This document shows, piece by piece, positions 57,001-60,000 of a stretch of DNA of 64,000 bases (positions are counted from its first letter, which is position 1; the number at the start of each line of letters is the position of its first letter). The stretch lies in NCBI RefSeq assembly GCF_003018255.1, contig NZ_CP027441.1; one strand, 5' to 3'. Made by a program: the position numbers. This DNA comes from Escherichia coli (GTDB lineage Bacteria > Pseudomonadota > Gammaproteobacteria > Enterobacterales > Enterobacteriaceae).

Positions 57001-60000
57001 AAGACACGCCGGTCATTTTCCTGTACAAACACAGACGATCATTTCAACGCATGGATATTTATATGAAACAGTTCACAAAAATACCCTACCCTGTTCAGCA
57101 ACATTGACATATTATCAGATTCTGTGTTTACAGCAACTGCTCTCCGGACCAGATTATTCACATAACCCGATGAATGACTCATCATCATGATGAGTCTCAG
57201 CATTCATTTAGTTAACAAAAATATTTCTTGCCTTCCCGGAAAGACAAACATACGAAAGAGAAAGCATGGCTATAATAATATCAATCAAAATATTCTCAAT
57301 CTTTCCGGTTGTCATACACTCAGCACCGACAACATAAAGACAATAAACAAAAGTGATAGCATAGTGCGATATATAAAGGAGATGAATGGCCAGAAGTAAT
57401 TTTCCTACCACTCTTTTTCGTTTAAAGAAGGAATAAATGAAGAGCAAACATAACCCTGACAGAAAAAGAAAGGTAGCAATGGAGATTATAAAATACTCCG
57501 TCACCTGTGAATCCTCTTCCAGAGATGAATACAGCGAATAATATGTGGTTGTGAGATTAAGTCTTGTTATCAATATATAAACAACTGATAATAGTATAAT
57601 ATAAAGAATCAGACCAAATCTGTTTTTCTGCGCTCCGGTTAATACTTCTGATTTATCTCGCATAAAATATCCTGTCTGTAATCTGTCCCGGTCAACAACA
57701 GTAAACGTCAGAATCAGTACGAATACGGTAACAAAGATTCCTCCTGTGCGTTAAAGTGCACAGGCAGAAACCAGTCTGGTGGTTCCGGTCAGGGAGTCTG
57801 ATACCTCAACTTCCCGGGTGACTATAACCATACCTGACTGACGCAGTCTCTGCACATCAGCGGCAATTCGCTGAGTTCCCGGCCAGAACAGGCCATCCAG
57901 TGCCGTTACCAGCAACCCGCTTTCCAGCGCCAGTTTCAGCCGTGCCGTCGGGGCTTTAACCTGCCCGGAAATATCAGTAAAACAACGCGTCGTCATGCCA
58001 TAGCAGTCCAGCCGCCGTATTCGCGTCGCAAGACTGTAGCTGAAACAATCCGGCACGCCGGATAAGTCATTCCGCAGACTGTATACACATCCCCGCTGCC
58101 GCCCGTTGAACAGGGCTTTTTTCTGGCTGAGTAGCCATTCCCGACGCAGAGTGTCAATCATCTGCGGTGTCCGGGTTAACAGCAGACGAAACGGCAGCTC
58201 AAAACTGGTCACATCATCAACATTCAGTAATGCTGTCCGCAGTCGCTCCCTGGCTCCAGCCCTGGTCTCCCGGCATTCACGCATGACATAAGCCCACTGA
58301 CGCATCAGTCGTGGAGACTCATTCCTCGCCCTGAACTGATATTTCTCAATATGATAATCAATACGTTCCTGCATATCGCCACCAGATATCTGTTGTTTAC
58401 CCAGACACAGTTATTAGCCTACAGGAATAAATATCCTCCGTGAAGTCAGGTGCCTCAGAAGATAAAAACATGTATTTTTTCAACGCGTAATATTAACGTC
58501 ATCCCCATAAAAATAAATCAGGAAAATATAAAATGATAAAATATATATTCGCACTCACTCTTCTGCTTTCCGGTTCTGTCTGTGCCGTTCAAATTCAGGG
58601 ACTCGTTATTCGTGTGCTGGACGGTGATGCTCTGGAGATATTACAGGCCCGGCACCCCGTGAGGATTCGTCTTGTTAATATTGATGCACCGGAAAAGAAA
58701 CAGCCTTTTGGGCGCAGGTCAATGAATCAACTTAAAAGCCTTGTGGTAAATACGCCCGTAACCGTGACATACACACAGACAGACCGCTACGGGCGTATTC
58801 CTGGACGGGTATATACCGAAGACGGCATGGAAGTTAACCGCTGGCTGGTACAGCATGGTGCAGCCTGGGTATATCCTGATTTCAACACAGATTACACCCT
58901 GCCGGTATACCAGAGATAGGTCAGAACAATGAAGCGGGGTCTGTGAGCAGATAAAAAACCTGTTCCTCCATGGCTGTGGCGAAAAGAAAATAAAAAATGA
59001 CCGCACAGAATTACAAATAAAAAACATCTTGGCGTAATATATATTTTCTCTGCTCCATTATTTTCCCTGTTTACAGTCAGCAAAAAACGCCCGAAGCAAA
59101 ACAAACACGAATAATAAACCTGCCCGATGCATCCATTACAAAAATGAATCCTTCCTCTTATGGAAAATACAGTAACCACAATGAAAAATAAACAGATAAA
59201 GATGATACTTATCTCACAAGGAAAAGCACTGGTGAAAACATAAGGCTCACTTAACTTTTTCACCCTGTAGAATCTTATTTTTTCATGGACATGTTATTTT
59301 GTTGATTTTAAAATATCAAAATGAGTGAATGTATCACATCACTCATAAAGTGGATATTATCACGAAACAATCTATTAAATAGCAGATACAACATGAATAA
59401 AATTTACTCACTAAAATATAGTAGCCTTACTGGTGGGCTTATAGCTGTATCAGAGTTAAGTAAAAAAGTTAAAGGAAAAACAGGCAGAAAATTAATGACT
59501 GCTTCCGTTGCTTTATCTGTGAGTCTTTCAGCCTTACCCGTAGAGGCATCAACGGTCAGCGCTGAAATACCATATCAGACTTTCCGTGATTTTGCTGAAA
59601 ATAAAGGCGTATTTACACCTGGTGCAACCGGAATTGAAATAAAAGACAAAAATGGAAACCTGACTGGCGTTCTCAATACCCCCATGCTTGACTTCTCCAG
59701 TTTGTCTCGAGATGGTCATACGACGCTGATTCATCCTGGCTATGGTGTTTCTGCAAAACATGGGAGATTGCAGAGTCTTAAGACAGCCACCTTTGGTTAT
59801 AATGCCGAATATAAAATAGTTAATAACAATCATGCATCATATGATTTCACAGCTCCACGATATAGTAAATTAGTAACAGAAGTTATTCCAGTTAACACTG
59901 GAGATGGGAAATATAACGACAGTAAAAAATATACGGCATTTTATAGAGCTGGGGTTGGTGACCAGTATATAAAGGATAAGAAAGGGAATCATACACTCCT

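Follow-up and report, generated by a model that had tools for sequence, protein, structure and literature searches.

A secreted SNase-like nuclease gene on a pO113-like plasmid of Escherichia coli interrupted by two in-frame nonsense codons

Genomic context of the nuclease gene

We analyzed a 64,000-nt stretch of Escherichia coli contig NZ_CP027441.1 (here, the window), which over 55 kb is colinear with plasmid pO113-EH41 at 99.7% identity. The window corresponds to the transfer region of a pO113-like virulence plasmid from STEC; LEE-negative STEC strains carry pO113 itself as their large virulence plasmid (PMC2681110). The genes toward its right end are arranged in the order traY, excA, a TnsA-like gene, hok/sok, a phosphoethanolamine-transferase gene, a DUF2569 gene, and an ECs1377-family HTH gene (the last three on the minus strand), followed on the plus strand by a nuclease gene and epeA, with trbABC lying beyond the window. 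The two immediate neighbors of the nuclease gene are as follows.

57751..58374, minus strand: gene for an ECs1377-family HTH DNA-binding protein (207 aa), the divergent partner of the nuclease gene (NCBIfam NF052300, 277.7 bits versus a cutoff of 190)
59393..63472, plus strand: epeA, a SPATE serine-protease autotransporter gene immediately downstream of the nuclease gene (placed from the pO113-EH41 epeA coordinates 50348-54427 plus an offset of 9045; autotransporter barrel)

The remaining genes of this stretch have features of their own. Between excA and hok/sok, a 528-aa ORF (52927-54513, plus strand) encodes both a sigma-70 region 4 HTH and an endonuclease N-terminal domain of the TnsA type. 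The phosphoethanolamine-transferase-like gene (55472-57028, minus strand) encodes sulfatase and EptA_B_N domains, scores far below the equivalog cutoffs, and is distantly related to CptA/EptA; it adjoins the DUF2569 membrane-protein gene (57208-57663, minus strand). A scan of the window against Rfam gave no match at the nuclease locus and recovered only two elements, both elsewhere: the PK-repZ regulatory pseudoknot (10081-10230, minus strand; 156 bits), which lies beside an I-complex rep gene, and the sok antitoxin RNA (54801-54958, minus strand; 120 bits) at the hok/gef locus. Likewise, a promoter and terminator scan of positions 58300-59400 found nothing above the shuffled expectation near the nuclease gene.

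The pairing of the HTH gene with the nuclease gene recurs across plasmids of the I complex. In pYZLc23-1, for example, the pair occupies the excA-trbA interval, its 155-aa nuclease is intact, and a SPATE gene is absent. The HTH-SNase pair is a backbone module of I-complex conjugative plasmids (IncB/O/K/Z, I-gamma type). We also considered orthology to the "nuc" gene of the IncI1 plasmid R64, which is likewise a nuclease gene in an I-complex transfer region, and rejected it: the traK-sog slot of R64 encodes a member of the phospholipase D family, and that plasmid lacks an HTH-SNase pair between excA and trbA, whereas the nuclease of the window is of the SNase type, lies between excA and trbA, and has no PLD counterpart at the traK-sog slot.

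A single nuclease reading frame with two internal stops

The nuclease locus comprises the following elements.

58533..59000, plus strand: ancestral nuclease reading frame of 155 codons plus a stop, with two internal stops (single-frame translation; gap-free alignment to WP_000598959.1; an equal 468-nt span is annotated by PGAP as "pseudo, internal stop" in sister plasmids)
58533..58919, plus strand: residual ORF of 128 aa (PF00565 match; SNase alignment; exact product found on 867 public contigs)
58917..58919, plus strand: nonsense TAG, Glu129* (GAG in intact orthologues; aligned with Q131 in helix 3 of SNase; E or D at 129 in all full-length homologues aligned)
58944..58946, plus strand: nonsense TGA, Trp138* (TGG in intact orthologues; aligned with Trp140 of SNase; W138 invariant in 28 sequences)
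58947..59000, plus strand: orphaned C-terminal tail ADKKPVPPWLWRKENKK*, in frame and untranslated (from translation; PVPPWxWR motif kept in homologues)

The original prediction of a secreted SNase-like nuclease gene holds. The 128-aa product matches the Pfam SNase domain (PF00565) with E = 8e-18 and 65.3 bits (cutoff 21) over profile positions 1-78 of 107, the intact orthologue scoring 86.1 bits over the full profile (positions 1-107). The N terminus, MIKYIFALTLLLSGSVCA followed by VQ, resembles a signal peptide in its charged and hydrophobic stretches and its AXA-like site, and it is kept in homologues. As a family, the plasmid nuclease does not reach the equivalog cutoffs that NCBIfam sets for NucI and EcnA.

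The manner in which the gene was said to be broken requires revision. It had been proposed that the C-terminal tail is encoded in a different frame from the ORF, implying at least one indel, and a tail does indeed stand downstream of a stop: the ATG-initiated ORF ends in TLPVYQR*, and ADKKPVPPWLWRKENKK* is encoded 28-81 nt past that stop. However, the ORF and the tail start at positions (58533 and 58947) that are each a multiple of 3, and translation of 58533..59000 in one frame gives ...PVYQR*VRTMKRGL*ADKKPVPPWLWRKENKK*, in which the TAG and the TGA separate the two parts.

Megablast searches of PLSDB and of 5,426 complete E. coli genomes placed this locus on >100 conjugative plasmids. Intact orthologues stand at the same position, including a 468-nt gene for a 155-aa protein (WP_000598959.1) on an IncK2/Z plasmid (L004, positions 3134-3601) and an epeA-linked gene on a pO113-like plasmid (L028). 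Compared with the IncK2/Z gene, the window differs by 12 substitutions and 0 indels, and the window and four related plasmid copies, one of them intact, align without a gap throughout the 468 nt. Two of the 12 create stop codons: GAG became TAG at codon 129, and TGG became TGA at codon 138. Because the ORF and tail share one frame and no gap separates the gene from its intact orthologues or sister copies, the proposal of a shifted frame is refuted; we give a frameshift practically no chance, and no indel of a length other than a multiple of three was found relative to the intact orthologues.

The alternative that proteins of this family naturally end where the window ORF does is likewise at odds with the comparisons. 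Among about 1,500 homologues, full-length members measure 149-167 aa, and alignments of 18 and 28 such proteins show E or D at position 129 and little or no variation at W138 and in the PVPPWxWR tail. All nontruncated homologues that we examined keep these three features, and early ends are seen only in close relatives with the same nonsense mutations. The intact genes, annotated as "thermonuclease family protein," include WP_000598959.1 (155 aa; IncK2/Z plasmid p655Rt), WP_106889596.1 (155 aa; epeA linked, strain 2014C-3338), and P0136 (167 aa; espP linked). They share with the window copy the locus, the upstream ECs1377-family HTH gene, the downstream SPATE gene, about 97-99% nucleotide identity, the signal-peptide-like N terminus, and the SNase domain; they differ from it at codons 129 and 138, the window gene being able to make 128 of 155 residues.

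Compared with the full-length orthologues that occupy this locus elsewhere, the frame thus contains premature in-frame stops, and coding sequence is still recognizable downstream of them. We consider this copy of the secreted SNase-like nuclease gene to be an ordinary pseudogene, disabled by two in-frame nonsense substitutions and free of any frameshift, with a probability of roughly 85%. The suggestion of a recent pseudogene is in this respect upheld, intact 155-aa orthologues existing at the same locus and PGAP flagging the TAG-bearing sister copies as internal-stop pseudogenes. Its biological weight is small: the result is an annotation-level correction from a frameshift to nonsense mutations, and it documents one more decayed accessory gene on an STEC virulence plasmid. 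The component alleles are already public and in part annotated as pseudogenes.

A 1.24-kb repeat and a probable gene conversion patch

The nuclease gene and its divergent partner belong to a repeat that occurs twice in sister plasmids, upstream of epeA and upstream of espP. A tblastn search of the window found no second SNase homologue within it, the second copy being the one that sits in the sister plasmids.

57764..59001, strand not applicable: repeat unit of 1,238 bp containing the HTH gene and the nuclease gene (BLAST of the window versus pO113-EH41; second copy upstream of espP annotated in sister plasmids)
58126..58921, strand not applicable: putative recombination (gene conversion) patch with 11 linked SNPs, carrying the TAG (SNP tables; minimum 796 bp, 58126-58921; maximum 872 bp, 58074-58945)

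In sister plasmids, each of the two copies carries one of the lesions. The epeA-linked copy (GAG...TGA) has W138* only and encodes a 137-aa product (WP_000598952.1) that PGAP treats as a normal CDS, and the espP-linked copy (GTA..TAG..GTC) has E129* only, with the TGG intact, and is annotated as "pseudo, internal stop." The window shares with these alleles the plasmid family and exactly these two nonsense mutations, but it differs from them in having both in one copy. From the SNP tables, the window matches the epeA type through 58073 and from 58946 on, whereas every variable site in 58126-58921, a total of 11 SNPs including the TAG, matches the espP type.

Gene conversion between the repeats is the most likely source of the double-stop copy, as judged from these SNP patterns. 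Glu129 to TAG and Trp138 to TGA would have arisen separately, in different repeat copies. Because an otherwise epeA-type copy holds a patch identical to the espP type, a conversion tract of ~0.8 kb (796-872 bp) appears to have been laid over an epeA-linked copy that already bore the TGA, adding the TAG to it; the right edge of the tract would have fallen between the two nonsense sites. Translation of the resulting gene is predicted to halt after residue 128.

Further copies of the repeat show tracts with other edges. JNE131328 and JNE151685 have espP-type sequence at 58905-58967 of their epeA copies, JNE120442 has a mosaic espP copy, and the espP copy of EH41 is of the epeA type throughout. 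EH53 carries a third, independent nonsense mutation in its nuclease copy, W104*. Intact forms of both copy types also persist (P0136, 167 aa, on 229 contigs; P0144/L028). We considered whether the intact epeA-linked allele of strain 2014C-3338 is a revertant restored by conversion; this was not borne out by its private SNPs and the T at 58967, and the allele looks like an older intact lineage.

The annotation of the singly interrupted alleles is uneven. WP_000598952.1, the 137-aa W138* form (L002, L003, L009, and L012), passes as a normal "thermonuclease family protein" CDS in PGAP, whereas the E129* form is flagged as a pseudogene. Because it lacks the invariant Trp and the conserved tail, the 137-aa allele probably deserves the pseudogene flag too.

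Frequency of the alleles and the question of an artifact

The exact 128-aa product is found on 867 public contigs and the 137-aa product on 547, with the intact 155-aa product on at least 1,000. Ten contigs encoding the 128-aa product were sampled, and all 10 carry the espP-linked allele with TAG and TGG. A 98-nt probe spanning both stops found no exact match in the 5,426 complete E. coli genomes, where it recovered 9 records at one mismatch and 24 at two; PLSDB also held no exact match to the double-stop haplotype, the best 701-nt match being 99.7%. The TAG-TGA combination is rare and rests on one sequence.

This bears on the possibility, raised in the original prediction, of a sequencing error. 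One or both stops, or their combination, might stem from sequencing, assembly, or polishing, for instance through cross-talk in assembly or short-read polishing that blends the two 98%-identical repeats of one plasmid, with the true epeA-linked copy bearing the TGA only. The want of an exact match in either collection is consistent with such an error, and the patch falls well inside a repeat with a second copy in sister plasmids, where mismapped reads would act. Against this, each stop by itself is a common allele that has been assembled independently, epeA-linked copies normally carry the TGA, and the TAG belongs to an 11-SNP patch. Moreover, the sequence switches type within intervals of only 53 bp (58073-58126) and 25 bp (58921-58946), less than the usual length of a read or k-mer, and several complete assemblies made independently show similar mosaics whose edges lie elsewhere. 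An error is thus improbable as the origin of either stop taken singly, and we regard an artifact of any of these kinds as unlikely overall; even if the patch were disregarded, the gene would still be truncated at W138*.

Parts of the SNase domain lost by truncation

We placed the truncation through sequence alignment to solved SNase chains. In phmmer searches against PDB chains, residues 24-140 of the intact orthologue align with staphylococcal nuclease with an E value of about 1e-11, giving the following equivalences (plasmid nuclease, then SNase; all from the phmmer alignment).

D32: D21
R46: R35
D51: D40
E54: E43
R88: R87
E129: Q131
W138: W140

The predicted catalytic and Ca-binding equivalents (D32, R46, D51, E54, and R88) all lie in the window ORF, upstream of the stops. 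The plasmid nuclease and the thermonuclease of Staphylococcus aureus (SNase, Nuc; e.g., PDB code 3BDC) thus belong to the same family (PF00565), with the active-site equivalents kept and W138 corresponding to W140. They differ in that identity is only about 30% by eye, and the plasmid family has Ala in place of T41 and the additional C-terminal PVPPWxWR tail; the window copy further differs in being truncated at the equivalent of residue 130. The window product stops at the A130 equivalent, short of the complete fold, and lacks most of the last helix, the loop around the W140 equivalent, and the family-specific tail. An AlphaFold2 model of the intact 155-aa orthologue, built from a 28-sequence alignment, had a pLDDT of 41, too poor for mapping the lost elements.

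Deletions that remove W140 reportedly leave SNase denatured, a result attributed to Hirano et al. (Proteins, 2002); our literature search found no primary truncation paper for Trp140 of SNase. Fragments of SNase do not fold unless they approach the full length (PMC3991860), and the L137-S141 loop near the C terminus matters for folding and stability, according to Wang et al. (2010) as cited in PMC3023800. Because C-terminal truncations of staphylococcal nuclease fold poorly, the 128-aa product, by analogy, should not fold stably, and the gene is likely best treated as nonfunctional.

The same literature offers an argument for residual function. The truncated SNase variant delta-131-delta is mostly unfolded and regains activity with its substrate (PMC9916686), and some ligand-induced nuclease activity of the 128-aa fragment is therefore conceivable; alternatively, low-level read-through of the stops could yield some full-length enzyme. 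The position of all the catalytic and Ca-binding equivalents upstream of the stops, the wide spread of truncated alleles, and the acceptance of the 137-aa form as a CDS by PGAP are in keeping with a gene that is still useful, and decoding of the UGA as Trp would bring back the wild-type residue. However, the window gene would require read-through at both a UAG and a UGA. The invariance of W138 and the tail in intact homologues implies that they are important, and the clade has accumulated three nonsense mutations together with W62R and L90P at conserved positions, as expected under relaxed constraint. We hold either form of retained function to be very improbable and retain the reading of an ordinary pseudogene.

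Selection and recombination around the SPATE genes

Inactivation of the nuclease might also have been selected in STEC virulence plasmids instead of reflecting neutral decay. W104*, E129*, and W138* are independent mutations in very closely related copies, and truncated alleles are frequent, as such selection would predict. Yet, intact alleles of both copy types persist, the plasmid family is rich in other pseudogenes (including traF, umuC, and espP in EH41), and the numbers are too small for a selection test. Adaptive loss is an improbable account.

The sequences on both sides of epeA and espP are shared. The upstream HTH-nuclease segment (57764-59001) is 98.2% identical to the espP-linked copy in pO113-EH41, and the 3' end of epeA with the sequence downstream of it (62633-64000) is 99.4% identical to the 3' end of espP and its downstream sequence in the same plasmid. 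The left arm of the SPATE loci consists of the HTH and nuclease genes, and the right arm consists of the barrel domain and small ORFs. With two SPATE genes between shared homologous arms, cassette exchange or conversion between the loci would be possible. The HTH-nuclease repeat and the shared 3' arm appear to be active recombination substrates, and such recombining flanks bear both on the movement of SPATE genes and on assembly and polishing errors in pO113-like plasmids. A wider interpretation, to which we assign little probability, is that the arms flanking epeA and espP exchange sequence by conversion in a manner that stacks lesions and could in principle rebuild an intact nuclease or, alternatively, that nuclease loss is selected.

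Comparison with pO113-EH41 also brought out differences away from the nuclease locus. In pO113-EH41 (L009-L012), traF and umuC each carry a frameshift, and espP is interrupted by an internal stop; the traF-equivalent ORF of the window (28815-30065, 416 aa) appears open. A 3.3-kb segment of the window (4090-7374) has no counterpart in pO113-EH41. Within it, on the minus strand, a 588-aa ORF (5448-7214) encodes ShlB/FhaC and POTRA domains and resembles a CdiB/TpsB transporter, and the adjacent cdiA of EH41 is annotated without its N terminus. The cdiBA locus thus looks more complete in the window than in EH41.
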